In this document: positions 1 to 64,000 of the stretch, piece by piece
Layout: every line of letters starts with the position of its first letter
Numbering within the stretch: the stretch's first letter is position 1
Assembly (NCBI GenBank): GCA_020633995.1
Contig: JACKCO010000004.1
Span: 90,928-154,927 of the forward strand
DNA: 64,000 bases
Direction of reading: 5' to 3'
DNA from: Campylobacterota bacterium
GTDB lineage: Bacteria; Babelota; Babeliae; Babelales; RVW-14
Program-made: the position numbers and the translations under genes
Notes under the pieces: generated by a model
Told to the model about the DNA's origin: nothing
Seen by the model: the letters and a program-made list of their open reading frames with translations, nothing else
Database searches by the model: none

Positions 1-2
1 AG

Positions 3-13034: not shown

Positions 13035-13041
13035 GGTTGGC

Positions 13042-20633: not shown

Positions 20634-20703
20634 GTGCGTTCCTCCTTTTTTTATACACTGACCAGTTGTAGCGTCAGTAGTTTTGAAATTTTTGGAGCGT
20701 GCC

Positions 20704-46295: not shown

Positions 46296-46324
46296 TTTAC
46301 AAAAAGTTTTTAGGTTACTAGAAT
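46296..46324 (+). promoter_or_regulatory. putative sigma70 promoter of the giant-protein locus (TTTACA-17 nt-TAGAAT)
   Basis: Hexamers with 17-nt spacing ~105 nt upstream of the ATG at 46429. A short inverted repeat aatattga...tcaatat lies just upstream (46269-46293). Confidence 0.4.
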
Positions 46325-46428
46325 CGAACATAAAATAATGCTACATGGTAAAAAAATTAGATGTGGTATGGGCCTCATCTAGATTCAAAAAGTGAGAGAG
46401 GTACAAGTCTGTGAGAGGAAGGAGAGCA

Positions 46429-49400
46429 ATGAGGAACATTCTTCGCTTGTCAACATTTCTATCTGTGCTTTTTATTGTTGGGTTGGGTCAGTCGCTTTTT
46501 TCAAATATAACCTTTGGTAGTCGTGAGTCTGCCATTAAGGTTCAATCGGGTACTACATTTAATATTTCATCTGACAATTTGTGCGTTGACGGTACTATTG
46601 ATGCTGCTAACGATGCAAGTATTACAGGCAAGGAATTTGCTTTCAAAGATGGTCGTTTGCGCAATAAGAATGTTGAACTCTGCATGACCGCACTGTATGA
46701 TCCAACAGGAACAGACATCATAACGCTTCCCGGCAAGGCTCACTGTGACGTAACACCTGGCACCGTGATTCAGGCAATGGTAGTTGAAGGTGTTGATAAT
46801 GAGCTCGAGGGACAGCCTCGTTTTAGTGGGCCGATTACTCTTGCCAACGACAAAACAGAGCTTTCAATCGGTATTCAAAACAAACTGAATAATGATATTG
46901 AGCTTAATGGCGGTAAATTGATTTTAATTGATAACCTTGGCCTTGTTGATGATGTTAAAATCAATGGTCCTGGTATTGTTGACTTAAATCAGCGTCAACT
47001 TTCACTTGGTAGCGTATATACCACACCGTGGGGAGGAGAACTATTTTTTGATAATGCAACTGACCTCGTGCTAACGGGTAACACGGTACTGACAGGGACC
47101 TGGACATTTACAGGTAAAACCGTTCTTAATGGTAACGGCTCAGTGCTTGATATGTCCGGTGGAGGTAAAATTATTGTTAAAGCTGGTGCAACGTTGTGCA
47201 TGAACGACATTCACGTTACTGGTCTTGCAGATGCAGCTGGCAAAGGCATGATTGTATTTGAAGACAAAACAAGTCAGCTTCGTATAGCGAATGCATCGTT
47301 CAAACTTGATGGTGATATGAGCTGGACCACCGGCGGCATGTATGTTGTTGGGCCTGCAACATTGATGCTTGGCAACTATGACTGGACTTTTGATACCATG
47401 GCTTCACTCACCGTAGACGGTGTACCATTGTGGCTTGATACGCTGTGTGCTGATTGCGCAGTTGGGTCAGGTCAATTGTTTGTTAATCTCCCATTGTTTG
47501 CAAATGGCTTATGGCAGCCAGATAATGTTACTGCAAATATTGCGGCCGGATACCTTTCATTAATTGATTGCGCAACAATTAAAGATACCATCAGCAAAGA
47601 GGAAGCCCGCTTTGACCAAAGTCTGTGCGAGTTGCTTAGTGGTTGCTTGACTGACAGTCTTAAGCTCAACTGTGGGATCTGTCTTTGTTCACATGATACC
47701 ATTAGAATTTGTGGGGATGTTGAAATTGACGGTCAAGGTAATGAGCTTTGCTTCCTATGTGGTGCAGACAATGCACAGCTTATTGTTGAAGCAGGTAACA
47801 CGCTCACACTTAAAAATATTGCATTAAACAACATTGGCCAAAATACCCTTGATATTCGCGATGGTGCATTGCTTAACATCGACGAAGATGTTTCATTTTG
47901 CCTGTGCGAAAACGTTACCTTCTCACAAGGTGCTATTCAGGTACTTAACTCGGCGGCTGGTTCAAACATTTTCACTATTAAAGGTGACAAGTGCAAACGA
48001 GTTTTTGATGTACGCCCACTTGTGCCATTGCTTCCATCAGGCGTTGCAAACCAATTGCTTTTCTTGGGCACTAACACCCTCAAGCTTGAAAATGCTGGTA
48101 TTGGTGGCTTTGCATCAATAAGCCATATTAATGGTCCGGTCATTGTTGGTGCCATTGCGCTTTCATGCCAAGCATGCGCATTTATTGATGTCGATACAGG
48201 TATGAACTTCTTTATTGAAGATGGCCGCAACGAAATGATTTTTGAGCAAGATGGTTTGATTATGTCTGGTAACATTTCATTTGGTGACTTCCCAGATAAT
48301 GAATTGTCAATGCGCTTCTTGCTTATTGATCCAATTGATCCAAACAACCCTCGCCGTGTTGGCGTAAAACCGGGTAACCCATTTGTAGAGTTTACTGGTG
48401 ATCCTGGAGTATTTGTGTTCTCACTTGACGGTCGTGCTCATCTGATTTTTGAAGACTTTTCAGTAACGACACGCCTTAGCAATGCAAATGGTATTGTGGT
48501 TGATGACAACTCGCTGCTTACAGCCAAGAAACTTGAAATTCTTGATAATCCAATTAAACAAGCATCTGGATTGTTCAGATTTGAAGCGATTGAAATAGCT
48601 GGTGCAAAAATTGACCCATCATTTGTTCGTAGCCCAGTAAGTGTGAGAAGTGCACTCAGATCAGAAGGTATCAAGTTAACAGCGCTGCACATTGCTCGTC
48701 AAAAAGAAAAAGAGCAGTTCTTAGCTTCACAGGCAGCAGCGATTGCAGCACTTGAACAAAATGGTGGACGTCCAAATAAACCAAACAAGCCAAGCAATAA
48801 TAATAAACCGCAAAAACCAGCGACAGCTAAACCATTAGCACCACGTCAAGATAAGCCAGAAGCGCCGGGCTCTCGTCCAGAGCAGCCTCCACGTCCACCA
48901 CAAAAGCCTGATCGCCCAGAAGCTCCGGGTCGCCCAGATCGTCCAAGTTCATCAGACAATGACCGTCCATCACGACCTACTCAAGTTCAAAACGGTGGAG
49001 GTAGTTCATCAAATGGACGTCGCCGTCGTAGTGAGCGTAGCTTGAATGATACAACTCGCGCAATGGGAATCCCAAGTCAGTGGGCAAGGAAACGTGGAGA
49101 TCTTGAAGATCCAGAGGATTTCTTCGTACCAGAAATATTTGACGAAATTATTGAAGGTAACCAAGGTGGTACTCTTCTTCTTAATCCTGCTGAAAATGAA
49201 CCGCTTAAAGGTGCTCTTGATGTGAGAAATAATGCTCGTATTGAGGAAGCATATACAGATCCCGACCAACCGTTTCATGTAGTTTTGAGTAATGAGTCAG
49301 AGTTAGAGCAAAGTAATTCTGGAGATATTGATCTCGAGCCTACACAGATAATCAGTGTGATCGGTAAACAGAATGTGGTAGAAGTTTGCCGTGACTTCAG

Positions 49401-50559
49401 AGTTAACCAGGGTAACTTGCTTCTCTCTGGTGATGCGGAATGTATTATTCGCTTTGCAAATAACGGAACACATAAACCTCGCTTTATTTTCTCTGCAGGT
49501 ATGACACAAAACATAGGAGAGCAAGGCAAACTGATTTTTGAAGGTGATGGGTATGTTGTTTGCGAGGATGGTGTAACATTCCAGTTCCTTGGACAACCTG
49601 AGATTAACCCTGAAACAGGTAGAGCGCAAACCGAAGCTCGTCCATCTATAATCATCAGAGATGATGCTAAGTTTGTTCCAGCGGCAAAGAACGCCAAAAT
49701 TGCTATTCAAGGTGTGGGTAATGTTAGCGTTGAAGATCGTGCAATGATCAAATTTGATAAGGCAGGTAGCAAACTACGTTTGGGTTCTTCAACCGAAAAA
49801 GTTGATGACGTTGACTCAAACAAGCTCAATGACATTATGTTGAATTTGATTGATGGTGTTGTTTGGGTTGAATCAGATGATTCATCAAATCGAGCATGTA
49901 TTAGCCTTGAGTACGGAACATTTGATATCAATGGTACTGATGGTGGCCGCTTGTTAGTTGGTGACTATGGTACCTTTGCTATAAACGGAGACTGCAACGA
50001 AACGTTGAAACAGGGTCGCTTCAATTCATTTGATCTTGGTTGTGGTGGACAGTTGAATATCCGTCAAAATGGCTTGCTGCTTATTGGTGCCAGCAAAGAA
50101 GATCCTAAGCAAAAACTAACTGGCAAAACCTGCTATGACTTTGAGTTCAGTGGTCAAGTACAAGGTTCAGGTTTAGTTGGTTATCTGCCTGCTCCGTTCT
50201 CAGGTACTCCGGGTAAAGAACAAAGTATTCACAAGGGTGGTTTACTCGGTCGCCTCATTGGTCTTAACGAGATGTTTGTTCGTCGTATAAAAGAAGCAGA
50301 TAAACTTTCAAGTGAAAGTATTGTCAGAAACTTGGTACAAAGTCGTCCAGGCCTGTCTGTCTCAACGGTATTTGTTGATGAAGACGGTGCTGTAATGTTG
50401 AGAACAAAGAATGGTACAACTGTTCCACTTGTTAATCCTGCAAACAATAACCCAATTACATTGGTATCAGACAGTTCAACAACCGGACAAGCAACTGGAA
50501 CGGATGGCTTTAATGCGGTGACGATTGACATTAATGGCAATATTAAAGTTAATGACTAA
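46429..50559 (+). CDS. giant secreted protein P1 (two NGxG signature modules, Pro-rich linker, distinct C-terminal half)
   Basis: AGGAAGGAG SD. Signal peptide MRNILRLSTFLSVLFIVGLGQSLFS. N-terminal ~330 aa are homologous to P3 and P6 (LTGTWTFTGKTVLNGNGSVLDMSGGG...). Confidence 0.85.
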   Translation: MRNILRLSTFLSVLFIVGLGQSLFSNITFGSRESAIKVQSGTTFNISSDNLCVDGTIDAANDASITGKEFAFKDGRLRNKNVELCMTALYDPTGTDIITLPGKAHCDVTPGTVIQAMVVEGVDNELEGQPRFSGPITLANDKTELSIGIQNKLNNDIELNGGKLILIDNLGLVDDVKINGPGIVDLNQRQLSLGSVYTTPWGGELFFDNATDLVLTGNTVLTGTWTFTGKTVLNGNGSVLDMSGGGKIIVKAGATLCMNDIHVTGLADAAGKGMIVFEDKTSQLRIANASFKLDGDMSWTTGGMYVVGPATLMLGNYDWTFDTMASLTVDGVPLWLDTLCADCAVGSGQLFVNLPLFANGLWQPDNVTANIAAGYLSLIDCATIKDTISKEEARFDQSLCELLSGCLTDSLKLNCGICLCSHDTIRICGDVEIDGQGNELCFLCGADNAQLIVEAGNTLTLKNIALNNIGQNTLDIRDGALLNIDEDVSFCLCENVTFSQGAIQVLNSAAGSNIFTIKGDKCKRVFDVRPLVPLLPSGVANQLLFLGTNTLKLENAGIGGFASISHINGPVIVGAIALSCQACAFIDVDTGMNFFIEDGRNEMIFEQDGLIMSGNISFGDFPDNELSMRFLLIDPIDPNNPRRVGVKPGNPFVEFTGDPGVFVFSLDGRAHLIFEDFSVTTRLSNANGIVVDDNSLLTAKKLEILDNPIKQASGLFRFEAIEIAGAKIDPSFVRSPVSVRSALRSEGIKLTALHIARQKEKEQFLASQAAAIAALEQNGGRPNKPNKPSNNNKPQKPATAKPLAPRQDKPEAPGSRPEQPPRPPQKPDRPEAPGRPDRPSSSDNDRPSRPTQVQNGGGSSSNGRRRRSERSLNDTTRAMGIPSQWARKRGDLEDPEDFFVPEIFDEIIEGNQGGTLLLNPAENEPLKGALDVRNNARIEEAYTDPDQPFHVVLSNESELEQSNSGDIDLEPTQIISVIGKQNVVEVCRDFRVNQGNLLLSGDAECIIRFANNGTHKPRFIFSAGMTQNIGEQGKLIFEGDGYVVCEDGVTFQFLGQPEINPETGRAQTEARPSIIIRDDAKFVPAAKNAKIAIQGVGNVSVEDRAMIKFDKAGSKLRLGSSTEKVDDVDSNKLNDIMLNLIDGVVWVESDDSSNRACISLEYGTFDINGTDGGRLLVGDYGTFAINGDCNETLKQGRFNSFDLGCGGQLNIRQNGLLLIGASKEDPKQKLTGKTCYDFEFSGQVQGSGLVGYLPAPFSGTPGKEQSIHKGGLLGRLIGLNEMFVRRIKEADKLSSESIVRNLVQSRPGLSVSTVFVDEDGAVMLRTKNGTTVPLVNPANNNPITLVSDSSTTGQATGTDGFNAVTIDINGNIKVND

Positions 50560-50586
50560 GCTTTTAAAAAATAAGGAGAGAGTACG

Positions 50587-52497
50587 ATGAACGCATTTAT
50601 TTTAGGAATGCTTGCCTCATTGCTCTTGTGTTGCAATGTGGAGCAGGCAAATGCCAACGCTCATGATGCCATGAGCGTTGCTAAAGAGCACGAAAAGGCT
50701 TTGGTAAAGCAGAAAAAAAATGCACAACGCGAAATGGAAAAAGCAAAAAAGACGACTGAAAAAGCACGCAAAAAGGAAATGAAGCGTGCGATGGAAGACA
50801 AGAAAAAACGCGTTGAAATGAAAAAGGCTGAGGACAAGAAAATTCGCAACAAGATGAAAAAGAAAGCCAAAAAAGATCGTGCTGCCAAAGAAGCTGATAA
50901 AAATCGTGTAGAGTACGAACGCCTTCGTGAAATGGATGGGCTTAAACAGGAAGAGAAAAAACAGCGTGCTCTGCAGGGACGTGATGAACGCGACATGCTT
51001 ATGAGCAATTGGGAAACTCATCGTGATAAAGTTGTCCTGCAAGAAAAAGAAAAAGGTAAGTATGCCTATCTTTATAAATCACCAGCATGGCCTATGCATG
51101 CACTCTTCTGGGAAAATAAAGCGTTTTTAAATGTGCAGTTTGACTACACCTACGCAACAGATGCTTATGGCTCTTGCCGTGGCGGTAGTGGGCATGATGT
51201 CTCAACACTTGAGTTTGGTCAGTGCCCAATCAAGCTCAAAGACATTTCTCTTGCCAGCAGGCTGCTTAAAGATGGGAAAGTTAATCCAGAGGCATGTAAC
51301 TTGGTTGTTGCAAACTTTCTGAAAGCGTTTGCGGATGAAACTTTGCGTTTTAATGGTAAGCAAGAGTCGATGAGTGTGTCGTTTGACTTTGCTCGTTACC
51401 TGCGTGGTCGTGATGTGGCCGTGGGTGTGCATGTGCCAATTGTGTACAAAAAGAATCGTCTTGAAATTGGTTTGCCAGTCAGTGGTCGTGAGCTTGAGTT
51501 TAATAGTTTCTTGGGATTGGGCAATGATCCGACAGCAACCTTAAATAACATTCCAATAGTTACTATACAGTCTCAATCAGGCCAGGCGATAGTTGTTCCT
51601 GCGAATACTGCTCTCAAACAACTTGTTAATCCAAATGTCTTGCAAGCTTTTAACGATTACATGATCGAAAAAATCTTGAAAGGCAAAGGCATTGAACACG
51701 TTGGTGGTTCATCTGGTGGTATTGGAGACATTGAGCTGTTTGGTAACATCCAACTCAGACCATGGTGGGCCGATAAAGTGATTTTTGGCTTACGTGTAGC
51801 AGTACCGACAGGCAAAGAAGCCGATCTGCACAGACTCTGGTCACCAGAGCTTGGCTGCGGTGGATTTACCACGGTTGGTGCCTACATGTCGGCACTGGTT
51901 AGCTATAAAAAGTTCCTGAATCCACATGTATTGATTGAAGGACGCTTTAGCAACTCAGCAAACGTTAAACGCCGTGTACCTCGCCGTGTTGTAACGCCTG
52001 ACAGTGCTGTCGCAACCGAAGATCTTGGCCATGACTTGATTTCTCTTGGTGGTTTTGTCAAATACAAAACAGATCCTCTTAGTGATGCTAACAAGTTTGA
52101 TGAATTTGATGCGACAGTTAATGGCTTTGGTGACAAGATTAACAAAATTCGCATGACCAAGGGTGCAGAATTTGAGTTCCGCCTCGGTAACATGATGGAA
52201 GCGTTCTTGCTTCGTCGTGGCTTTATGGACGTGTACTACAACTTTAGAGCCAAAGCTCAAGATGAAGTACGTCGTTGCCTTGAGCAAGTTGACACAGCTT
52301 GCTGTCAGCGCGTTGATGAACTTAACCTGTGCTATGTTTGGGATAACACACAGCGTCTTGAGCATAAGCTTGGTTTTGAGTATGCCTATCAGTTTGATCT
52401 GGACGCACGTCTGCGTGTCGGCTTAGAGTATACCTTTGCTGGTAAGAGCGTTCCAAAACTAGTGTTATTCACAACAGCGTTTAACTACTCATTTTAA
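50587..52497 (+). CDS. predicted outer-membrane beta-barrel protein P2 with Lys/Glu-rich N-terminal region
   Basis: AAGGAGAG SD. Signal peptide MNAFILGMLASLLLCCNVEQANA. ~130 aa of K/E/R-rich sequence. C-terminal ~450 aa have alternating polarity and end ...TTAFNYSF (terminal Phe). Confidence 0.7.
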   Translation: MNAFILGMLASLLLCCNVEQANANAHDAMSVAKEHEKALVKQKKNAQREMEKAKKTTEKARKKEMKRAMEDKKKRVEMKKAEDKKIRNKMKKKAKKDRAAKEADKNRVEYERLREMDGLKQEEKKQRALQGRDERDMLMSNWETHRDKVVLQEKEKGKYAYLYKSPAWPMHALFWENKAFLNVQFDYTYATDAYGSCRGGSGHDVSTLEFGQCPIKLKDISLASRLLKDGKVNPEACNLVVANFLKAFADETLRFNGKQESMSVSFDFARYLRGRDVAVGVHVPIVYKKNRLEIGLPVSGRELEFNSFLGLGNDPTATLNNIPIVTIQSQSGQAIVVPANTALKQLVNPNVLQAFNDYMIEKILKGKGIEHVGGSSGGIGDIELFGNIQLRPWWADKVIFGLRVAVPTGKEADLHRLWSPELGCGGFTTVGAYMSALVSYKKFLNPHVLIEGRFSNSANVKRRVPRRVVTPDSAVATEDLGHDLISLGGFVKYKTDPLSDANKFDEFDATVNGFGDKINKIRMTKGAEFEFRLGNMMEAFLLRRGFMDVYYNFRAKAQDEVRRCLEQVDTACCQRVDELNLCYVWDNTQRLEHKLGFEYAYQFDLDARLRVGLEYTFAGKSVPKLVLFTTAFNYSF

Positions 52498-52511
52498 GTA
52501 ATAAAAACATG

Positions 52512-52541
52512 CCGGAAGCGTTTGTATAAAGGCGCTTCCGG
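52512..52541 (+). terminator. 9-bp GC-rich hairpin after P2 (no T-run; weak terminator or RNA processing/stability element)
   Basis: ccggaagcg-12 nt-cgcttccgg. Confidence 0.3.
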
Positions 52542-52568
52542 TCCACCGTCAGTGCTGGAGAGTTTGTA

Positions 52569-54605: not shown

Positions 54606-54658
54606 AGAGAGAGAAAAATTAGTTAACGTTTATTTTGCTAGGTAAAAAAGGAGAGAGA

Positions 54659-55678
54659 ATGAGACGTTTTGGCTGCTCAAATAGTCTAAAAAAATGCTTA
54701 ATCATGGTACTTATTTTGTTGCAAGGCTCAGCGCTATTTTGTGCTGCAAGCAAAAAAAGAGTATGCCGTGATGGAGAGACCATTGAGGGTTTTGTTCCTT
54801 TGAATGGGGTTTCTTTGCCATCAAAATCAGATGTCTATTTTAATGTTCCTCTTCCAGTACAAGGAATTGTAGAGTTTGGTGCCGATTGTACTATGCATCT
54901 CATGAGTGACCTACATACTGCATCACACATCAATTTTGCTATTGGTCAGAATTGCTCGGACTGTGCTTATATAAATGGGCAAGGATATACATTATTTCTT
55001 GGTGGTGATATAAACGTCCCAGCCTCACGTTCATTGCACATAGCTGGTGATTTAACGATTGATGGTAACGGATATACTATTTGTTTTGAGGACTTACTCT
55101 CGGAAATTTATGTTCATGAGCATTGCACACTTACTTTACGCAACCTTATTTTAAGGGGTTGGGATGGCAATTGCCAGCTTGCAGGACAAGGCCGTGTAGT
55201 ATTGCAGGATTGTGAAATTGACTTGTCACCTGAAATGGTAGCTGAATATGAGGGTGATGGAGAAGTTGAAGTACGTAGCTTGGTGTCAGTACAAGGTGGC
55301 GGCAAGTTAGTCTTTGGTGGTAGAAGTTCTTTAAAAATAGATTCATTTTCTACTTTGTGGATGGATTCGGATACAACACTTCATTGGAAGAATCAAACTC
55401 GAACTGGGCTTGTAATGGTTGATGAAACATCCCGTATTTTCTTAAACGGTGGAAATATTCATGCAGATGCTAAAGGAGAGAACAAAGGGCTTCAACTGAC
55501 TAAAGGAACATTGCTTTTAGATAATAGATGTATGATTCAAAATGACGGTAATACATCTGCTACAAGAAGTTTTCAACTTGGTGATGGAAGAAATACAGCT
55601 AATGATGTTGATGTAAAAGTTCTTGCTGGGGCGCTTGTTGAGGTTGATGGCTACATGGACTTTAATCCGGCTCGGTAG
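54659..55678 (+). CDS. secreted short paralogue P4 (one signature module + shared C-terminal motif)
   Basis: AGGAGAG SD before the ATG at 54659. Signal peptide ...CLIMVLILLQGSALFCAAS. TIDGNGYTICF...LTLRNLILRGW; C-terminus LQLTKGTLLLDNR...FQLGDG...DVDVKVLAGA. Confidence 0.8.
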   Translation: MRRFGCSNSLKKCLIMVLILLQGSALFCAASKKRVCRDGETIEGFVPLNGVSLPSKSDVYFNVPLPVQGIVEFGADCTMHLMSDLHTASHINFAIGQNCSDCAYINGQGYTLFLGGDINVPASRSLHIAGDLTIDGNGYTICFEDLLSEIYVHEHCTLTLRNLILRGWDGNCQLAGQGRVVLQDCEIDLSPEMVAEYEGDGEVEVRSLVSVQGGGKLVFGGRSSLKIDSFSTLWMDSDTTLHWKNQTRTGLVMVDETSRIFLNGGNIHADAKGENKGLQLTKGTLLLDNRCMIQNDGNTSATRSFQLGDGRNTANDVDVKVLAGALVEVDGYMDFNPAR

Positions 55679-55719
55679 TGTTTTGCAAGGTATATAAACG
55701 TTTTAAAGGAGAGTAGAAA

Positions 55720-58700
55720 ATGAGATGTTACAAGAAGATTGTGTGCTTAATGCTTTTGGCAGCCAGTGGCATTGAGCATCATCTTGCGGGGGCAAAGCTA
55801 GATTTTGCAAGTCGTAGCTCGTCCATATTGCTAGGTAGTAATGGAAAGCAGTCTGTTTTGCGTGTTGGCGATCAGAATAAAGTACGTGGTTGGGAGCAAG
55901 AATCAATTGTACGAGCATCTGATCGAGGCCTTACTATTAGCAGAAGTCCTGGAGGGGCTCAAGTTTACGATCAAAATAGTGCACCAGCCTCAGTGAATGA
56001 TGAGTGGCACGTGCTAAGAGACTGGCAAATGGATCGTGCCTTTACTACAACCGATCCAGAACTTGTTTTACAAAACAGTGCTGCAATAGCTGCGCTTGCG
56101 CAGTGTTGCAAAAATAATAGTAATGCAATTGTAAAAAATGACGCGGATATTGCAAGTAACGCTTCTGACATCATTACCAATGCGGTTAATATCGCATCAA
56201 ATGCAACAAGTATTGCAAGTAACGCAATGGACATATCTGATAATCTTAAAGCAATTAGAAACAACAGTAATGCGCTTCTTGCATGTTGCAGAAATAATAG
56301 TAATGCAATTTTGGCTATTAATGCTGATCTGTCACAGGGTGTAGAGGACAACAGTAATGCCATTATTAAGCTTGAACAAGATGTAACCAACAATAGCAAT
56401 GCTTTGATTGCAAAGTGTGACGAAATTGAAGCGAATAGCAATGCGATTTTGGTTAACGTTCAAAATATCACGAATAACAGTAATGTTATCGTAGTTAATG
56501 TTCAAAATATAACAAATAATAGCAACACTATTGTTAAAAATTCTCAAAATATAATAAATAACAGTAATGCTATTGTTGTCAAATGTGAAGAGATCGAAGC
56601 AAATAGCAACGCGATTATTAAGCATGATCAAGATATCACAAATAATAGCAATGCCATTATTGCGGTAGTCGAGTGTTGCGAAGACAATAGCGAAGCGATT
56701 ATTAAGCTTGCACAAGATGTTGAAAATAATAGCAACGCGATCTTGAAGAATGTTCAGGATATCACCAACAACAGTAACACGCTGTTGGCATGTTGCCGTG
56801 ATAATAGCAATGCGATCATCAAGTTGACGAATGATGTCGAAAATAACAGCAACGCGATCTTGAAGAATGTTCAGGATATCACCAACAACAGTAACACACT
56901 GTTGGCATGCTGTCGTGATAATAGCAATGCGATTATCAAGTTGACGGATGATGTTGAAAATAACAGCAACGCGATCTTGAAGAATGTTCAGGATATCACC
57001 AATAACAGTAATACCTTGTTGGCATGTTGCCGCGATAACAGCAATGCGATTATCAAGTTGACGGATGATGTTGAGAACAACAGCAACGCGATCTTGAAGA
57101 ATGTTCAGGATATCACCAACAACAGCAACACATTGTTGGCATGCTGCCGTGATAACAGCAACGCGATTATCAAGTTGACACAAGATGTTGAAAACAACAG
57201 CAATGCGATATTGAAGAACGTTGAGGATATTAAAAATAACAGTAACACGCTGTTGGCATGCTGCCGTGATAACAGCAATGCGATTATCAAGTTGACACAA
57301 GATGTTGAAAACAACAGCAATGCGATATTGAAGAACGTTGAGGATATTAAAAATAACAGTAACACCTTGTTGGCTTGCTGCCGTGACAACAGCAATGCGA
57401 TTATCAAGCTGACACAAGATGTTGAAAATAACAGCAACGCGATCTTGAAGAATGTTCAAGATATCACCAACAACAGTAACACTTTGTTGGCATGCTGCCG
57501 TGATAACAGTAATGCGATTATCAAGTTGACACAGGATGTTGAAAACAACAGCAATGCGATCTTGAAGAATGTTCAAGATATCACCAACAACAGTAACACT
57601 TTGTTGGCATGCTGCCGTGATAACAGCAACGCAATTATCAAGCTGACGAATGATGTTGAAAACAACAGCAACGCGATCTTGAAGAACGTTCAGGATATCA
57701 CCAACAACAGCAACACATTGTTGGCATGCTGCCGTGATAACAGCAACGCAATTATTAAACATGACCAAGATATCACCAACAATAGTAATGCGATCATTGC
57801 ATTGGTAGAGTGTTGTGAAGATAATAGCGAAGCGATTCTCAAGCTTGTTGAAGATGTTAAGAATAACAGTAACACCTTGTTGGCTTGCTGCCGAGATAAT
57901 AGCAACGCGATTATCAAACATGATCAAGACATAACAAACAACAGTAATGCGATTGTTAAGAACGTTCAGGATATCACCAACAACAGTAATACCTTGTTGG
58001 CTTGTTGCCGCGATAACAGTAATGCAATTGTTAAGTTGACGCAAGATGTTGAAAATAACAGCAACGCGATCCTGAAGAAGTGTCAAGATATCGAAAATAA
58101 CAGCAATGCAATATTGAAGAATGTTGAAGATATTAGACACAACAGTGATGCAATTGTAAGTATTATGATTAACAATGAGTTGATCATACATAACAGTAAC
58201 GCAATTGTTGTACTTGCCGAGTGTTGTGAGGACAACAGCAATGCAATCATTAAACATGAGCAAGACATTAAGAACAACAGTAACACCTTGTTGGCCTGCT
58301 GCCGTAACAACAGTAATGCGATTATTAAGCACGAACAGGATATAAAAAACAACAGTAATGCAATTATTGCAGTGGTTGAGTGTTGCAAAGACAATAGTGA
58401 GGCGATCCTGAAATTGGTACAAGATGTTACAAACAACAGTAACACGTTGTTGGCCTGCTGCCGCGATAACAGCAATGCGATTATCAAATTGACGCAAGAT
58501 GTTGAAAACAACAGCAACGCGATTCTGAAAAACGTTGAAGATATCAAGAATAACAGCAATACGCTGTTGGCATGTTGCCGAGACAATAGCAATGCGATCA
58601 TCAGACACGATAAACAGCTAAATACCATTGATCATGGCCCAGAAAAAGTGTTTATCAAGCACAACACGCATCAAATCAACTTTGATCTGCATATTTCCTG

Positions 58701-59655
58701 TACACACTGCATGGTGATTGAACCAGAATGTCCAAAATCACCAAGTGATTTTGCAGCTGACGGGCAAAAGGCAGTCACTCGAAACGGTTACGCTTGTAAC
58801 ACGACTGTTACTATTAATGGTAATGGCCAGGCAATTAACCTTGCAAGCAAATGTGATGACATTATTCAGGTAGCAGATGGTGTACAAGTTATTTTTGAAA
58901 ACGTTGTGTTCAGACACTACCATGACCGTGTTTTTCAGCTTGGCGAAGGATCTGAAGTTGTCTTTGGTAACTGCACACGTCTTGAACTTGATGAAATGCA
59001 GAGCATGGAGATGGATTGGAAGTTTGACGGAGATACACAAATCCGTGGTTATGACAATATCTTGATGCTGGGTGAGTACAACATAAGAGTATTGCCAAGT
59101 GCAGAGCTGACGATGCACAACTTGTGGTTGTCAGGCATGCAGGATAACAATGTACGTTGCGAACATGACGATTCAAGCATTATTTACAAAGATTGCGACT
59201 TGTGGTTATCAGCAGACTACAGCTTTACAAAAGGCTCAATGCTGTTTGTCCAAGATGTAGTTTTACGCGGAACACATTGGTTTAACTACATGACAGACTT
59301 GACATCAACCATTAGCGGATGCTCAAGCTTGACCTTTGATAAGGGCGTTGTGTTTAACTATGAACCGCCTATTGCGAACAGAGACCTGATTGCAATGCAA
59401 GACATTACAGCAGTCTTAAAATGGGATGGCTGTGATATTTACTCAACACCAACTGGCTGGCGCCTAACCGTGGGTACGTTGTGTGTTGATCATATCAACA
59501 GACTCTTTGGTAGCGGTTCAAGCTTGTCACAAGCCATAGCGTTTGGTAATTGTGTCAATCAAGTAGTACTTGACGATCTTAATGTACAAGTGTTGCCTGG
59601 TGGATCAATTGATCTTCAATCAGGTGTGCTTGACTACGCAAACTTAGATACATAA
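55720..59655 (+). CDS. giant repeat protein P5: signal peptide, ~840 aa of NNSNAI/LLACCRD 39-aa repeats (predicted coiled-coil fibre), C-terminal module B + shared C-terminal motif
   Basis: AAGGAGAG SD. Signal peptide MRCYKKIVCLMLLAASGIEHHLAGA. The non-repeat C-terminal ~340 aa are homologous to the P3 C-half, which fixes strand and frame. Confidence 0.9.
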   Translation: MRCYKKIVCLMLLAASGIEHHLAGAKLDFASRSSSILLGSNGKQSVLRVGDQNKVRGWEQESIVRASDRGLTISRSPGGAQVYDQNSAPASVNDEWHVLRDWQMDRAFTTTDPELVLQNSAAIAALAQCCKNNSNAIVKNDADIASNASDIITNAVNIASNATSIASNAMDISDNLKAIRNNSNALLACCRNNSNAILAINADLSQGVEDNSNAIIKLEQDVTNNSNALIAKCDEIEANSNAILVNVQNITNNSNVIVVNVQNITNNSNTIVKNSQNIINNSNAIVVKCEEIEANSNAIIKHDQDITNNSNAIIAVVECCEDNSEAIIKLAQDVENNSNAILKNVQDITNNSNTLLACCRDNSNAIIKLTNDVENNSNAILKNVQDITNNSNTLLACCRDNSNAIIKLTDDVENNSNAILKNVQDITNNSNTLLACCRDNSNAIIKLTDDVENNSNAILKNVQDITNNSNTLLACCRDNSNAIIKLTQDVENNSNAILKNVEDIKNNSNTLLACCRDNSNAIIKLTQDVENNSNAILKNVEDIKNNSNTLLACCRDNSNAIIKLTQDVENNSNAILKNVQDITNNSNTLLACCRDNSNAIIKLTQDVENNSNAILKNVQDITNNSNTLLACCRDNSNAIIKLTNDVENNSNAILKNVQDITNNSNTLLACCRDNSNAIIKHDQDITNNSNAIIALVECCEDNSEAILKLVEDVKNNSNTLLACCRDNSNAIIKHDQDITNNSNAIVKNVQDITNNSNTLLACCRDNSNAIVKLTQDVENNSNAILKKCQDIENNSNAILKNVEDIRHNSDAIVSIMINNELIIHNSNAIVVLAECCEDNSNAIIKHEQDIKNNSNTLLACCRNNSNAIIKHEQDIKNNSNAIIAVVECCKDNSEAILKLVQDVTNNSNTLLACCRDNSNAIIKLTQDVENNSNAILKNVEDIKNNSNTLLACCRDNSNAIIRHDKQLNTIDHGPEKVFIKHNTHQINFDLHISCTHCMVIEPECPKSPSDFAADGQKAVTRNGYACNTTVTINGNGQAINLASKCDDIIQVADGVQVIFENVVFRHYHDRVFQLGEGSEVVFGNCTRLELDEMQSMEMDWKFDGDTQIRGYDNILMLGEYNIRVLPSAELTMHNLWLSGMQDNNVRCEHDDSSIIYKDCDLWLSADYSFTKGSMLFVQDVVLRGTHWFNYMTDLTSTISGCSSLTFDKGVVFNYEPPIANRDLIAMQDITAVLKWDGCDIYSTPTGWRLTVGTLCVDHINRLFGSGSSLSQAIAFGNCVNQVVLDDLNVQVLPGGSIDLQSGVLDYANLDT
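56074..58608 (+). repeat. in-frame degenerate 13/39-aa repeat region of P5
   Basis: NNSNA[IL] recurs about every 13 codons. 15 LLACCR and 4 ECC[EK]D Cys-Cys doublets counted in the translation. Confidence 0.95.
56716..57768 (+). repeat. 9 consecutive near-identical 117-bp (39-aa) tandem units
   Basis: Unit DVENNSNAILKNV[QE]DI[TK]NNSNTLLACCRDNSNAIIKLT[NDQ]. The period was checked from nucleotide offsets (56716, 56833, 56950 ...). Confidence 0.95.
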
Positions 59656-59665
59656 ACGCAAAAGC

Positions 59666-59697
59666 CTGAAGAGGAGGGAATCATCCCTCCTCTTCAG
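59666..59697 (+). terminator. perfect 14-bp hairpin between P5 and P6 (no T-run)
   Basis: ctgaagaggaggga-atca-tccctcctcttcag. Confidence 0.4.
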
Positions 59698-59773
59698 AAT
59701 ATGAGATGGTGTAAGAGCTTCGTTACGAGCGTTACGTAGAGGTGTCTACGCATTTTTTAAAAAAAGAGGAAGG

Positions 59774-62700
59774 ATGGGTGTGACTATACCTGCAAAACGT
59801 GCAATAAAAGTTTTATTGGCGATAGCTTGTACACTGTCAAGTAGTCTCTTTGCAGCAGTTGAATTTGGGAGCTTAGCGTCTGCTATTAATGTTAGACGCA
59901 GCGCACAGCTGCAGTCTTTTGCGAATCCATTTTTGGTGCGAGAGGGGAGTGTCAATGCACTTGAGAGTGGCGTAGTTTCAGGTCCCAAACTTATGTTTGA
60001 TGGAGGTATTTTCGCCGATAATAACAGTAGTGCAGAATTTACTGGTGATCTGGCGTTCACTCAAAATAATGTTATTGAAGTTTTTGACTCAGCATCAAAT
60101 GTAACTATTGTTGATCAAACAACTATTGATAGAAACATTATTTTAAATGACGGGACGTTGCGTCTTGATAATAAATTAAGTCTTGCCGATGGTGTTACTA
60201 TTGGTGCTTCTGGTCGTGTGCAGCTTAATGGTCATAGGCTAGAATTTGGAGGAAGAGATTTAGGTTTGACGAGCTCAATCGTCTGGGAAAATGCAGATGA
60301 TTTGGTCATGCATAGCAATATTGCTTTGACGGGGTTGTGGACGTTTACCGGCCCAGCCCACATTATCGGAAATGGCAATTGCCTTGACCTGACCAGTGGT
60401 GGGACGCTGTGGATACGCAGTAATACCGATGTATGGTTGAGCGATATTAAAATTCGCGGCTTGGGAACGGGGTTTATTGTTTTTGAAAATAAAACGTCTC
60501 GTTTGTATCTTTCGCAGGTTGAAGTAGAACTTGATTCATCGTTTACGGTAACAACCGGTGGTATTTACGCAAAAGGTCCTGCTAATATCGTAACAAAAAA
60601 TCACTTCTTAGCGTTTGATCAGAGTGGATCGTTAACCGTTGATGGGATACGCCTTACTTATGACACGTTGACGTTTGATGACCGTTCAAATATAGTGCCG
60701 CTCGACGCTGGGCAAGATCCAGGTGGGGTCAACTTAGCACTTGTAAATAATGGCGTTATCACAAACAACAATGTGGCACAGGCAAGTCAGCTTGCTATTC
60801 AAAACAGTAATGCAATTCTTGTTAAATGCCAAGAGATTGAAAATAACAGTAATGCAATTCTCGCGATTAGCTCTGGCGGGGTCCAGCTTGCAATAGAAAA
60901 CAGTAATGCGATTGTTGCAAAGTGCCAGGACATAGAAAATAACAGCAATGCAATTCTGAAGAACGTTCAGAATATAACGAATAACAGCAACACGATTTTG
61001 GTTAATGTTCAAAATATAACTAACAATAGCAATACGTTGATCAAGAAATGTCAGGACATTGAAAACAACAGCAATGCAATTTTAAAGAATGTTCAAGATA
61101 TAACGAATAACAGTAACACCTTGTTGGCGTGTTGCCGAGACAACAGTAACGCAATTATCAAATTAACGAATGATGTTGAAAATAACAGCAATGCGATTTT
61201 GAAGAATGTTCAGGACATAACAAATAACAGCAACACGCTTCTTGCATGCTGCCGAGACAATAGCAACGCGATTATCAAGCATGACCAAGATATAACAAAT
61301 AATAGTAATGCGATTATTGCACTTGATGTGGCAAGTGGTGGTGCTGCCGAACTTGCAGAGCAGAATAGCAATGCCATCCTTGCAAAATGTCTTGAAATAG
61401 AGGCCAACAGCAACGCAATCTTGAAGAACGTTCAAGACATAACAAACAATAGTAATACGTTGTTAGCCTGTTGCCGAGATAACAGCAACGCAATTATCAA
61501 GTTGACGCAGGATGTTGAAAACAACAGCAACGCGATTTTGAAGAATGTTCAGGACATAACAAATAACAGCAACACGCTTCTTGCATGCTGTCGTGACAAC
61601 AGTAATGCTATTCTTGCCCTGAGTGCTGGTCTTACTGATGGGGTGACGAATAATAGTAATGCGATTATTAAGCTTGTTCAGGATGTGACGAACAATAGTA
61701 ATACGCTGTTGGCGTGTTGCCGAGACAACAGTAACGCAATTATCAAATTAACGAATGATGTTGAAAATAACAGCAATGCGATTTTGAAGAATGTTCAGGA
61801 CATAACGAACAATAGCAATACGTTGCTTGCCTGCTGCCGAGACAACAGCAACGCAATTATCAAACATGACCAAGATATAACAAACAACAGTAATGCTATT
61901 GTTGCACTTGATCAAGGCCTTTCTCAGGCAATCGAAAACAACAGTAATGCGATTATTAAGCTTGTTCAGGATGTGACGAACAACAGTAACACGCTGTTGG
62001 CATGTTGCCGTGATAATAGCAATGCAATTATCAAATTAACGAATGATGTTGAAAATAACAGCAATGCGATTTTGAAGAATGTTCAGGACATAACGAACAA
62101 TAGCAATACGTTGCTTGCCTGCTGCCGAGACAACAGCAACGCAATTATCAAATTAACGAATGATGTTGAAAACAACAGCAATGCGATTTTGAAGAATGTT
62201 CAAGACATAACGAACAATAGCAATGCATTGCTTGCTTGTTGCCGCAACAATAGCAATGCGATTATCAAGATTGTTCAAGATGTTAAAAACAACAGCAATG
62301 GAATATTGGCAAATGAAGCTGACATTATGAAGAACGCAGCAGACATTTTGACCAACGCCGTCAACATCGCAACGAATGCAACAAACATAGCTGCGAATGC
62401 CGTTGATATAACCAATAATGCTATGGATATTGCTTCCAATGTTGACAACATCAGGCACAATAGCGATGCAATTATTGGTAAATGTCAGGATATTGAAAAT
62501 AATAGCAATGCAATATTGGCAATAGGTGATTGTTGCATAAACAACAGTCAGCGTATTACTAATAACAGCAATGCAATTATCAAAAAATGTGAAGAGATTA
62601 AACAGAATAGTAACGCAATATTAGCCAATGAGGCTGATATTATGAAGAATTCAGCCGATATTTTGACCAACGCAGTCAATATTGCAACGAATGCAACAAA

Positions 62701-64000
62701 CATAGCTGCAAATGCTGTTGATATAACCAATAATGCTATGGATATTGCTTCCAACGCCGACAACATCAGGCACAATAGCGATGCAATTATTGGTAAATGT
62801 CAGGATATTGAGAATAATAGCAACGCGATATTGGCGATAGGTGATTGCTGTGAACAAAATAGTGGCGCGATTATTAAACTGACGCAAGATGTTGAAAATA
62901 ATAGCAATGCAATACTGGCAAAGTGCTTAGAAATTGAAGCTAACAGTAACGCAATCTTGAAAAACGTCCAGGATATTACTAATAATAGCAATACCTTGCT
63001 AGCCTGCTGTCGTGATAATAGCAACGCAATTATCAAACATGATCAGGATATAACAAATAACAGTAATGCAATTGTTGTGCTTGCCGAGTGCTGTGAAGAC
63101 AACAGTGAGGCAATTCTCAAGTTGACTCAAGACGTTGCCAACAACAGTAACACGCTGTTGGCTTGCTGTCGTGATAATAGTAATGCAATTATCAAGCATG
63201 ATCAGGATATAACAAACAATAGTAATGCGATTGTTGTGCTTGCCGAATGTTGTGAAGACAATAGTGAGGCAATCCTCAAGTTAGTCCAAGATGTCACCAA
63301 CAACAGCAACACTTTGTTGGCATGCTGCCGTGATAATAGCAATGCGATTATCAAGCTAACGGATGATGTTGAAAATAACAGCAACGCGATTTTGAAGAAC
63401 GTGCAGGATATCACTAACAACAGCAACACCTTGTTGGCATGCTGTCGTGATAACAGCAATGCAATTATCAAGCTGACGAATGATGTTGAAAACAACAGCA
63501 ACGCGATCTTGAAGAACGTTCAGGATATTACTAACAACAGCAACACCTTGTTGGCATGCTGCCGTGATAACAGCAACGCGATTATCAAATTGACACAAGA
63601 TGTTGAAAATAACAGCAATGCGATCTTGAAGAACGTGCAGGATATTACTAACAACAGCAACACCTTGTTGGCATGCTGCCGTGATAACAGTAACGCGATT
63701 ATCAAGTTGACAGAAGATGTTGAGAACAACAGCAACGCGATCTTGAAGAACGTTGAGGACATTAAGAACAACAGTAATACCTTGTTGGCATGTTGCCGCG
63801 ATAACAGCAATGCGATTATCAAGTTGACACAAGATGTTGAAAACAACAGTAATGCGATCTTGAAGAACGTTGAGGACATTAAGAACAACAGTAACACTTT
63901 GTTGGCATGCTGCCGTGATAACAGTAATGCGATTATCAAGTTGACGCAGGATGTTGAAAACAACAGCAATGCGATCTTGAAGAACGTTGAGGACATTAAG
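59774..64000 (+). CDS. giant repeat protein P6 (3' end outside the window): signal peptide, N-terminal module A, then more than 1,070 aa of the same repeat family
   Basis: Not in the ORF track because there is no stop before the window edge. GAGGAAGG SD before the ATG at 59774. 4,227 nt (1,409 codons) are open to nt 64000. Signal peptide MGVTIPAKRAIKVLLAIACTLSSSLFAA. ALTGLWTFTGPAHIIGNGNCLDLTSGG is homologous to P1/P3. Confidence 0.88.
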   Translation, partial: MGVTIPAKRAIKVLLAIACTLSSSLFAAVEFGSLASAINVRRSAQLQSFANPFLVREGSVNALESGVVSGPKLMFDGGIFADNNSSAEFTGDLAFTQNNVIEVFDSASNVTIVDQTTIDRNIILNDGTLRLDNKLSLADGVTIGASGRVQLNGHRLEFGGRDLGLTSSIVWENADDLVMHSNIALTGLWTFTGPAHIIGNGNCLDLTSGGTLWIRSNTDVWLSDIKIRGLGTGFIVFENKTSRLYLSQVEVELDSSFTVTTGGIYAKGPANIVTKNHFLAFDQSGSLTVDGIRLTYDTLTFDDRSNIVPLDAGQDPGGVNLALVNNGVITNNNVAQASQLAIQNSNAILVKCQEIENNSNAILAISSGGVQLAIENSNAIVAKCQDIENNSNAILKNVQNITNNSNTILVNVQNITNNSNTLIKKCQDIENNSNAILKNVQDITNNSNTLLACCRDNSNAIIKLTNDVENNSNAILKNVQDITNNSNTLLACCRDNSNAIIKHDQDITNNSNAIIALDVASGGAAELAEQNSNAILAKCLEIEANSNAILKNVQDITNNSNTLLACCRDNSNAIIKLTQDVENNSNAILKNVQDITNNSNTLLACCRDNSNAILALSAGLTDGVTNNSNAIIKLVQDVTNNSNTLLACCRDNSNAIIKLTNDVENNSNAILKNVQDITNNSNTLLACCRDNSNAIIKHDQDITNNSNAIVALDQGLSQAIENNSNAIIKLVQDVTNNSNTLLACCRDNSNAIIKLTNDVENNSNAILKNVQDITNNSNTLLACCRDNSNAIIKLTNDVENNSNAILKNVQDITNNSNALLACCRNNSNAIIKIVQDVKNNSNGILANEADIMKNAADILTNAVNIATNATNIAANAVDITNNAMDIASNVDNIRHNSDAIIGKCQDIENNSNAILAIGDCCINNSQRITNNSNAIIKKCEEIKQNSNAILANEADIMKNSADILTNAVNIATNATNIAANAVDITNNAMDIASNADNIRHNSDAIIGKCQDIENNSNAILAIGDCCEQNSGAIIKLTQDVENNSNAILAKCLEIEANSNAILKNVQDITNNSNTLLACCRDNSNAIIKHDQDITNNSNAIVVLAECCEDNSEAILKLTQDVANNSNTLLACCRDNSNAIIKHDQDITNNSNAIVVLAECCEDNSEAILKLVQDVTNNSNTLLACCRDNSNAIIKLTDDVENNSNAILKNVQDITNNSNTLLACCRDNSNAIIKLTNDVENNSNAILKNVQDITNNSNTLLACCRDNSNAIIKLTQDVENNSNAILKNVQDITNNSNTLLACCRDNSNAIIKLTEDVENNSNAILKNVEDIKNNSNTLLACCRDNSNAIIKLTQDVENNSNAILKNVEDIKNNSNTLLACCRDNSNAIIKLTQDVENNSNAILKNVEDIK
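60789..64000 (+). repeat. in-frame NNSNAI/LLACCRD repeat region of P6, continuing past the window
   Basis: Same 39-aa unit as P5, interspersed with variant units and heptad (xDIxxNA) stretches. The last ~700 nt are regular 117-bp units. Confidence 0.95.
62309..62851 (+). repeat. 315-bp-offset internal duplication inside P6 (two 228-bp copies: 62309-62536 and 62624-62851)
   Basis: Both copies encode ANEADIMKN[AS]ADILTNAVNIATNATNIAANAVDITNNAMDIASN[VA]DNIRHNSDAIIGKCQDIENNSNAILAIGDCC. Confidence 0.9.

Follow-up and report, generated by a model that had tools for sequence, protein, structure and literature searches.

Layout of the locus

The window analyzed here, a 64,000 nt stretch of contig JACKCO010000004.1 (assembly GCA_020633995.1), carries six co-oriented genes on the plus strand, P1 to P6, which encode a predicted outer membrane beta-barrel (P2) and a family of large, putatively secreted proteins (Table 1). 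The intergenic gaps are 27, 71, 53, 41 and 118 nt, every ATG has a purine tract of the GGAG/AGGAG type 5-12 nt upstream, and each product starts with a basic and then hydrophobic N-terminus. Signal peptides were assigned by inspection and from the N-terminal helices in the P2 and P3 models. A first-pass annotation, made from the sequence of the window, had described six open reading frames (ORFs) with gaps of 27-118 nt, Shine-Dalgarno tracts and hydrophobic Sec-type N-termini, and all of these were found again. The exact P2 and P3 sequences are deposited at NCBI, on a 542-kb contig, as hypothetical proteins H6679_03790 and H6679_03795.

The annotation had further regarded the five proteins other than P2 as paralogues assembled from shared modules, and all-versus-all BLASTP bore this out. 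An N-module is common to P1, P3 and P6 (E 1e-34 to 1e-44), a C-module is common to P3, P5 and P4 (E 3e-36 and 6e-8) and duplicated within P3, and the repeat regions of P5 and P6 share 64% identity over 921 residues. P1, P3, P4, P5 and P6 are mosaics built from these common modules.

No Pfam, NCBIfam or PDB sequence profile recognized any of P1-P6, the Pfam and NCBIfam searches returning only low-complexity or coiled-coil noise (fvmYukDl_N, DUF948, SMC). The POTRA, autotransporter, YadA-anchor, two-partner secretion (TPS) and type IX secretion C-terminal domains of Pfam were without match among the six proteins; profile matches to Pmp, YadA-anchor, TpsA/TpsB, type IX C-terminal or RTX families, any of which would have spoken for an already characterized system, did not appear. 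The motifs GGA[ILV], GGxGxD and NPNL/NPNG occur zero times in P1, P3, P4, P5 and P6, in agreement with the initial statement that Pmp and RTX motifs are lacking from these proteins, and FxxN occurs 0-6 times per protein. It had also been stated that all five lack an aromatic C-terminal residue; this holds for four of them, the C-terminus of P6 lying beyond the window.

Table 1. Features of the P1-P6 locus and of related loci mentioned in the text
Feature	Residues	Nucleotides	Strand	Remarks
Promoter candidate		46296-46324	+	sigma-70-like, TTTACA-17-TAGAAT; 10/12 matches in a consensus scan; consensus match only
P1		46429-50559	+	1376 aa; in-frame GTG at 46411 possible alternative start
P1 N-terminal 12-residue motif		46507-46542		
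P1 beta-helix N-region	~27-750	46507-48678		
P1 linker	~751-946	48679-49266		variable, disordered; Pro-rich in this genome
P1 C-terminal domain	947-1376	49267-50556		conserved
P2		50587-52497	+	636 aa; predicted outer membrane barrel
P2 signal peptide	1-23			
P2 charged helix	29-155	50671-51051		
P2 pre-barrel motif	157-169	51055-51093		GKYAYLYKSPAWP; conserved
P2 barrel	179-636	51121-52494		
P2 PTG	407-409	51805-51813		after strand 397-406, the fifth
P3		52569-54605	+	678 aa
P3 N-module	~30-345	52656-53603		right-handed beta-helix (predicted)
P3 C-module	~375-678	53691-54602		right-handed beta-helix (predicted)
P4		54659-55678	+	339 aa; ORF opens at TTG 54635
P5		55720-59655	+	1311 aa
P5 N-terminal 12-residue motif		55801-55836		
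P5 coiled-coil stalk	~110-960	56047-58599		follows signal peptide and N-terminal motif
P5 repeat array		56695-57755		nine 39-aa (117-nt) repeats, up to 91% identical
P5 C-module	~1000-1311	58717-59652		beta-helix
Inverted repeat		59665-59698		perfect, 15 bp; directly 3' of P5 stop codon
Second hairpin		59735-59758		followed by T-run; 5' of P6
P6		59774 to >64000	+	>1409 aa; no stop codon in the window
P6 N-module	~1-345	59774-60808		beta-helix; includes signal peptide
P6 N-terminal 12-residue motif		59858-59893		
P6 coiled-coil stalk		60809-64000		39-aa repeats and pure xNxxxIx heptad runs
P0076		L019:1552-3975		807 aa; JGI 3300066520, contig Ga0606624_0000928
P3-type gene with Lys-rich start		L004:12076-14145		
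P3-type gene with Lys-rich start		L010:4229-8281		
P3-type gene with Lys-rich start		L011:14115-16307		
P3-type gene with Lys-rich start		L001:12236-13267		

P2 is predicted to be an outer membrane barrel resembling FapF

The AlphaFold2 model of P2, based on an alignment of 60 relatives (pLDDT 85, pTM 0.74), contains helices at residues 29-69 and 84-155, followed by a beta-barrel (residues 179-636) with long inserted loops at residues 195-251 and 296-373. When the model was compared with the PDB using Foldseek, the top match was FapF of Pseudomonas (E 1e-13, TM score on target 0.67-0.78), and 20 FapF/4rl8 chains were retrieved at E 1e-13 to 1e-10 with TM scores in the same range. The COG4313 channel Pput2725 (4rl8) ranked second (E 3e-11), followed by FadL/TodX (1e-8) and then by the autotransporter barrels of EspP, NalP, BrkA, EstA and Hbp (1e-6). 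Since no link to FapF or COG4313 was found at the sequence level, P2 is, as judged from its model, a structural relative of these proteins and no demonstrable family member.

Several features of P2 recur in the 60 relatives. The C-terminal residue, which belongs to the sequence FNYSF in P2, is aromatic in 59 of them, PT[GA]-like residues occupy the PTG site in 53, and the pre-barrel motif (G.YA.LYK.PAWP) is conserved. Their N-regions are 41-269 aa long with a median of 43% charged residues. In P2, K, R, E and D make up 47.5% of residues 1-160, and the N-region (48% charged) shows a weak heptad signal and no hydrophobic periodicity peak. The first-pass annotation had noted the K/E-rich N-region and the FNYSF terminus, and its failure to recognize POTRA-like sequence in P2 was matched by the model, in which a helix takes that place, and by the lack of a Pfam match. 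Taken together, P2 is confidently predicted to be an outer membrane beta-barrel preceded by a long charged helix.

An exhaustive phmmer search yielded 302 cluster representatives (50% clustering) related to P2, 139 of them at E <1e-30. With neither Pfam nor NCBIfam matching P2, this large family is unmodelled by any library; over the 60 relatives, NCBIfam gave compositional matches only. The regions preceding the barrel vary in kind among P2 homologues: P0051 and P0035 have internally repeated K/E helices that reach ~830 aa, P0055 has Ser-rich repeats of ~80 aa, and P0079 has an unrelated region of ~560 aa. Two other assignments of P2 were discarded. A match to the WD0745 porin (E 0.032) was restricted to the charged N-region, and the cysteine of a possible lipoprotein signal (LLLCC) is not kept in the relatives.

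P1, P3 and P4 are predicted beta-helix proteins

The AlphaFold2 model of P3 (pLDDT 85) consists of a signal peptide and two all-beta solenoid domains. In both the PDB and a viral library, the best fold matches were uniformly right-handed parallel beta-helices, the nearest being the TpsA protein HxuA (E 2e-3), the passengers of Ag43, EspP and Fap2, PL6 lyases, and phage tailspikes and neck appendages. The model thus suggests that P3 is composed of two right-handed beta-helices. P4 comprises a signal peptide and a single beta-helix of the C-module type (BLASTP against the P3 C-terminus, 6e-8), with a sub-threshold Pfam match to a pectate-lyase-like adhesive domain (E 0.013). A small P4-type paralogue is present in at least nine loci, usually between P3-type genes, and orthologues of P4 (E 1e-12 to 6e-41) were found in the related loci L004, L006, L007, L010, L011, L014 and L018 (see below).

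The domain limits of P1 were derived from an alignment with eight orthologues, all encoded directly upstream of a barrel gene. The profile of its C-terminal domain shows a distant resemblance to the P3 C-module (hhalign 76%, E 2e-5) and retrieved nothing relevant from PDB sequences.

Directly after the signal peptide, many module proteins carry a 12-residue motif, [ILV]x[FW][GAS]S[RK.][DE.]SxIx[VIL], which lies in similar places in ~22 proteins of L001-L018. The motif is never internal, the best internal score being 3.7 bits versus 6-14 bits at the N-termini; as these very sequences served to train the scoring model, only this positional specificity is informative. P5 has the motif despite being devoid of the N-module. 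This motif might serve as a targeting or capping signal. The second P3-type gene in several clusters encodes a protein without it, whose mature part opens with a Lys-rich, low-complexity sequence such as KVRSGKKKRVTAKVKSKLKVKNSK.

P5 and P6 contain putative coiled-coil stalks

The 39-aa repeats of P5 and P6 can be read as five heptads interrupted by a four-residue stutter (NNSNAIL KNVQDIT NNSNTLL [ACCR] DNSNAII KLTNDVE), and other stretches consist of pure xNxxxIx heptads, for example ANEADIM KNAADIL TNAVNIA TNATNIA. The copy number of the 117-nt tandem arrays derives from a metagenome assembly and may be inexact. Double heptads with Asn at i and a hydrophobic residue at i+4 were counted 38 times in P5 and 48 times in P6, versus 5-6 +/- 1.8 in shuffled sequences; for P5 alone, the shuffles gave 5.0 +/- 1.7. 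Hydrophobic periodicity analysis gave a clear 3.55-residue peak for P6 and only harmonics of 39 for P5. Because P5 and the P2 N-region have no periodicity peak, assignment of the stalks is based on explicit heptad counting. The sole PDB sequence matches of the stalks were UspA1 (2qih) and a fragment of SadA (2wpr), both at E 0.016.

In the stalks of trimeric autotransporters, a hydrophobic residue at a combined with Asn at d is the signature of the polar core (PMC13580157). The repeat sequences therefore point to Asn-at-d coiled coils in P5 and P6, and stalks of this type imply that the two proteins would form trimeric fibres. At ~0.15 nm per residue, stalks of 850-1060 residues would correspond to fibres of roughly 100 nm or more. 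We speculate that P2, if trimeric like FapF, would match the symmetry of the stalks. A YadA-head-like beta-roll formed by the 12-14-residue NSNAI sub-repeats was also considered. It was rejected, as Hep_Hag did not match despite ~60 copies and as the register is that of five heptads with a four-residue stutter.

P5 and P6 contain 57 and 52 cysteines, respectively, mostly as adjacent CC pairs within the stalks. Spacing like that of adjacent CC pairs is tolerated by narrow-pore secretion. The same cysteines would also suit a periplasmic scaffold, in which the P2 helix and the beta-helix and coiled-coil proteins form a CC-cross-linked lattice, in the periplasm or just beneath the outer membrane, that tethers the degenerate envelope surrounding the infectious particle and makes it stiffer, a role analogous to that of the chlamydial cysteine-rich envelope complex. 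Dense periplasmic material (PMC6561590) and loss of lipopolysaccharide (LPS) genes (PMC4776705) have been reported for Dependentiae, the phylum to which the locus appears to belong (see below), and under a FapF-like topology the P2 N-region, and hence also the module fused to a barrel in the P2 homologue P0076, would be periplasmic. We nevertheless regard such a scaffold as very improbable. Giant beta-helices and Asn-at-d coiled coils belong overwhelmingly to adhesins or fibres outside the cell (PMC13580157; fold matches above), the recently expanded, near-identical repeats (91%) together with the hypervariable regions suggest diversifying surface structures, and a stalk of 850 to >1060 residues is far longer than the periplasm is wide.

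The barrel gene is linked to module genes across Dependentiae

P2 or P3 homologues led to related loci (L001-L019) in Logan, JGI, NCBI and GTDB-representative genomes. Seventeen loci with flanking sequence represent 16 distinct places, as L002 is a repeat of L001; L015 lacks flanking sequence, and L005 begins within an array. In all 16 places, the P2-type gene has a P1-type gene directly upstream and/or a P3/P4-type gene directly downstream, with P2 relatives that are 28-40% identical to P2, and no unlinked P2 homologue was seen among them. The order ldh-P1 (1100-1300 aa)-P2-P3-P3-P4 (~350 aa)-P3 recurs in L004, L007 and L011. L006 and L010 have the same downstream order with the upstream part cut off, L014 has the same gene set with insertions, and L018 has this set with fewer P3-type genes. 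The P1-P2 gaps are 3-64 nt. P1 is always translationally adjacent to P2 and would be the likeliest stoichiometric partner of the barrel.

One homologue, P0076, combines both kinds of protein in a single polypeptide. It consists of a signal peptide, one complete module, a charged helix of ~25 residues, a PSWPF motif and a P2-type barrel (E 3e-66). The module matches the P3 family with a probability of 98.7% in hhalign (E 2.6e-16) and P0158 in BLASTP (5e-38). In front of it lies another gene for a P2-type barrel, which is cut by the contig end (L019:1-1485), and behind it are genes for five module proteins of 229, 227, 1259, 1526 and >1601 aa. Judged from its sequence, P0076 is a natural module-barrel fusion, and its passenger-helix-barrel order is that of classical autotransporters.

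In a scan of species-representative genomes with an alignment of 12 close P2 sequences, 12 of 12 matches fell in Dependentiae/Babeliales/TM6 or in unclassified or mislabelled metagenome-assembled genomes (MAGs), and every named-genome match of the P2 search belonged to Dependentiae/TM6. As far as seen, the locus is a conserved, putative envelope module specific to this phylum. The co-occurrence of P2 homologues with module proteins that had been proposed for survey was thus observed as gene linkage in Dependentiae/TM6 genomes, and the possibility raised alongside it, that P2 is a generic porin unlinked to the paralogues, is contradicted by the module neighbours in 16/16 places and by P0076.

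We asked how much of this linkage could be inherited by chance. The commonest arrangement adjoins ldh in nine distinct places (L001, L004, L007, L008, L011, L014, L017, L018 and the window), so that part of the synteny reflects simple vertical inheritance; at the extreme, the barrel and the giant proteins would be independent and the locus no functional unit. This explanation is already disfavoured and, in our view, can be given very little credence. The linkage holds at 28-40% protein identity, and it holds away from ldh or without a visible ldh (L016, L019 and probably L009). It also persists in P0076 and after cassette duplication, as one genome carries both L008 (P1-P2) and L016, in which a second P2-type gene accompanies genes for stalk-repeat proteins of 2077 and 1167 aa. 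Of all the evidence, the linkage is the strongest.

The ldh product of the window is 50-62% identical to those of genomes with P2 relatives, in the same ldh-P1-P2 synteny. From the locus, the ldh identity and the synteny, we infer that the window organism is a member of Dependentiae. Its MAG, labelled 'Epsilonproteobacteria bacterium', appears to be mislabelled, as do related MAGs labelled 'uncultured Pseudomonadota' (L007, L010 and L014). L005 (GCA_013558375.1, JACCDG011274881.1), a contig of 45 kb, contains three tandem P3-type genes in an assembly whose contig numbering reaches millions; this assembly is probably that of a eukaryote or host carrying a Dependentiae symbiont or contaminant.

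A possible secretion and display system

The suggestion of the first-pass annotation that a dedicated barrel is combined with a family of fibre or solenoid proteins is upheld by the P2 barrel and P3 beta-helix models and by the Asn-at-d heptads of P5 and P6. P1, P3, P4, P5 and P6 have Sec-type N-termini and no barrel or recognized anchor of their own, as far as P6 extends within the window. On an even balance of probability, we propose that the locus encodes a type V/FapF-like display system in which the barrel and its passengers are mostly separate polypeptides. All six proteins would be carried over the inner membrane by Sec. The beta-barrel assembly machinery would insert P2, as a roughly 12-stranded barrel of the FapF/COG4313/autotransporter class, into the outer membrane, where the pre-barrel segment (G.YA.LYK.PAWP) probably occupies or gates the lumen. 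P1, P3, P4 and the fibre proteins P5 and P6 would then be passed unfolded to or through P2, and their folding into solenoids and coiled coils outside the cell would provide a vectorial drive, as in autotransporters. The products may remain attached to the cell via P2 and P1 as host-attachment fibres.

Several observations weigh against this proposal. At the sequence level, searches with P2 alone, with the 60-member profile and with a barrel-only profile retrieved no FapF, COG4313 or autotransporter chains from the PDB, the full-length and barrel-only profiles missing FapF and 4rl8 even at E up to 10, and Pfam PF13557 (Phenol_MetA_deg) touched 1 of the 60 relatives with an E of 0.0044, below threshold. 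In the P2 model, the DSSP assignment is ambiguous between 12 strands and 14 segments, and the N-region is so charged that it may form a single alpha-helix instead of a trimerising coiled coil. The P3 model was built on a 12-row alignment; its Foldseek search against the PDB gave no match below E 1e-3, and that against the viral library gave one, a phage neck appendage (2.7e-4). The cysteines of P1, P3 and P4 are dispersed. P0076 is the single fusion seen, on one contig, and the N-regions of P2 homologues are hypervariable in length, from 41 to ~830 aa over the proteins examined. Finally, the folds nearest to P2 include importers (COG4313, FadL and TodX), and for this reason the fold fixes neither the direction of transport nor the substrate, and folded proteins could be exported by the type II secretion system of TM6, which has GspD in two copies (PMC4776705).

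The last two points lead to a different assignment, in which P2 is a major outer membrane channel or importer of the COG4313/FadL type and a docking platform for a coat that folds in the periplasm, is exported elsewhere, for example through the type II secretin, and binds to the loops of P2 or to P1. Importers (4rl8, FadL and TodX) form the second- and third-best fold classes of P2, and ScrY, an importer, also has an N-terminal coiled coil (PMC5557850). The two gspD genes of TM6 genomes (PMC4776705), the long inserted loops of P2 and the dispersed cysteines of P1, P3 and P4, which fit periplasmic folding, agree with this assignment as well. However, in P0076 a module is fused to the N-terminus of the barrel, an arrangement of autotransporters and unlike that of a docking partner. 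Each barrel paralogue is accompanied by its own cargo genes (L008/L016 and L019), as is typical of dedicated translocators, and every P2 homologue in the 16 distinct places is linked. An importer that anchors a coat is thus unlikely in our judgement.

The hypervariable N-regions, in turn, show the pattern expected of passengers, not of a conserved periplasmic domain. P2 could be a mini-autotransporter that, as in type Va, uses its own barrel to export only its own N-region, a charged helical stalk or, in P0076, a beta-helix module. Its neighbours would then be surface or secreted proteins that share its regulation, act independently and interact at most with the stalk. The passenger-helix-barrel order with a C-terminal aromatic residue, the significant fold matches to autotransporter barrels (E 1e-6), the variation of the N-region in both length and type, and the true module at this position in P0076 are all consistent with such a role. 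It would, however, leave five large partners without an outer membrane route or anchor, Pfam detected no autotransporter beta-domain, and FapF, whose N-terminus was shown to be periplasmic by experiment, fits the fold far better (1e-13 versus 1e-6). We therefore consider export of the N-region alone quite unlikely.

The display system can be extended to the whole phylum. Dependentiae would own an unrecognized 'split autotransporter', in which a FapF-like barrel of novel sequence, with a helical N-region, translocates in trans and then anchors a family of beta-helix and Asn-at-d coiled-coil fibres. Present already in the ancestor of the phylum and kept by all its members, this would be their main apparatus of host attachment and entry, and the rare fused form, P0076, would be an evolutionary bridge from FapF-type pores to classical autotransporters. 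We put this forward tentatively, as a conjecture with rather less than an even chance of being right.

Regulatory features and neighbouring genes

Upstream of P1 are an ldh/mdh gene (45267-46235) and a ribosomal-protein operon, and the promoter candidate sits in the 193-nt gap between ldh/mdh and P1. The two hairpins between P5 and P6 are candidates for an attenuator, a terminator or an mRNA stabilizer, and P6 may be expressed separately or at another level. Scans of the window for tRNA genes and Rfam families gave no matches. A minus-strand ORF of 758 aa (56332-58608) antisense to the P5 repeat array was dismissed as a by-product of the low-complexity repeats.

Elsewhere in the window, an LpxC gene is located at 19752-20633 (Pfam E 9e-79). 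Much of LPS synthesis has reportedly been lost in Babeliales (PMC4776705); the window lineage may retain lipid A, which bears on the type of outer membrane that would hold P2. The region 20683-23733 encodes an effector-like, eukaryote-flavoured protein of 1016 aa with endonuclease/exonuclease/phosphatase, DnaJ and Macro domains, and a neighbouring ORF of 809 aa (13012-15441) has no Pfam match.

Discussion

Dependentiae (TM6) are ubiquitous obligate parasites of protists known from a handful of isolates, and the literature that we searched contains essentially nothing on their envelope and host attachment. What the genome papers describe is limited to 'surface antigens of unknown function', porins, a degenerate outer membrane and a type II/type IV pilus system. 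Full-text searches found no paper linking FapF-type barrels, adhesins or the proteins of this locus to Dependentiae. In this respect, the arrangement is undescribed, as the first-pass annotation had supposed; the FapF/COG4313 barrels are structural analogues, however, which makes it a variant of a known principle. While the principle has precedent, the proposed type V/FapF-like system would be new in its split form, with many passengers to one barrel, and has so far been seen in a single phylum. For a case built on computation alone, the evidence from linkage and structure is unusually clean. The locus provides a concrete, conserved candidate for the surface apparatus of Dependentiae.

If the display reading is true, the FapF/COG4313 barrel class would be found in a third context, after small-molecule import and amyloid export, and the window locus and P0076 would constitute a natural pair, in trans versus in cis, bearing on the origins of autotransporters and two-partner secretion. 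Many hypothetical proteins would gain an annotation if the P2 family, with its 302 representatives, and the module families were defined. For coiled-coil specialists, the interest lies in Asn-at-d stalks that occur outside canonical trimeric autotransporters.

Comparison with known secretion systems

FapF forms trimers of a plugged, 12-stranded barrel whose N-terminal coiled coil lies in the periplasm, and it exports unfolded amyloid subunits delivered by Sec; it resembles type Va barrels and shares with Pput2725 a PTG motif, which lies at the base of loop 5-6 (PMC5557850). FapF (5o65/5o67/5o68) is the best structural match of P2, with a superposable 12-stranded-type fold. P2 has the same order of signal peptide, helical N-region, linker/plug segment and barrel with a terminal aromatic residue, and its PTG follows strand 5 as in FapF and Pput2725. 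Both are encoded beside Sec-dependent proteins without a barrel of their own that form fibres, a property predicted in the case of the window. In contrast to FapF, P2 has no detectable sequence homology to it, a barrel domain of ~480 aa versus ~320 with large loop insertions, and a hypervariable K/E-rich helix in place of a short conserved coiled coil. The putative substrates are beta-helix and coiled-coil proteins of 340 to >1400 aa without amyloid repeats, and the cluster contains no FapD-like C39 peptidase, FapA/FapE-like or FapB/C/E amyloid genes, the neighbours of the barrel gene all encoding predicted beta-helix/coiled-coil proteins that Pfam does not match.

A 12-stranded-type barrel combined with right-handed beta-helix passengers is also found in type Va systems, the order of which is seen in P0076. 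Unlike these, the window proteins are split, and the autotransporter beta-domain (PF03797) was detected neither in them nor in the 60 relatives. The adjacent genes for a putative transporter and its cargo, acting in trans, are reminiscent of two-partner secretion (type Vb). In this case, however, there is no Omp85-type 16-stranded TpsB barrel and no POTRA, ShlB or Bac_surface_Ag match, the cargo lacks the TPS domain and NPNL/NPNGI motifs, and HxuA is a weak fold match (E 2e-3). Different from both type Va and type Vb, one barrel gene would serve about five different cargo genes.

P5 and P6 share with the trimeric autotransporter adhesins of type Vc (YadA, SadA and UspA1) heptad arrays with a hydrophobic residue at a and Asn at d (xNxxxIx) and a modular build of head and stalk. 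They differ from these in that P1-P5 have no YadA-like anchor (PF03895), P5 ending in a beta-helix module and P6 beyond the window, in that Hep_Hag, HIM and neck motifs of Pfam are missing and the heads would be single-chain beta-helices, and in the four-residue stutter with a CC pair in the 39-aa unit. The chlamydial Pmps likewise represent a multigene family of beta-helix proteins in an obligate intracellular organism with a developmental cycle, and the chlamydial outer membrane complex likewise contains cysteine-rich envelope proteins; the Dependentiae proteins would share the surface exposure of the Pmps. Pmps, however, are classical autotransporters with their own barrel, and the module proteins have neither GGA[ILV]/FxxN repeats nor a sequence relationship to them. 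RTX or type I substrates are distinguished by GGxGxD, of which there are 0 occurrences here, and by HemolysinCabind, which has no Pfam match, and type IX cargo by the Por_Secre_tail sorting domain, absent in Pfam and NCBIfam searches.

Overall, P2 falls outside the sequence families of FapF and autotransporter barrels and is likened to both by its predicted fold. Without their defining domains, the cargo resembles the passengers of type V systems and the stalks of trimeric autotransporters.

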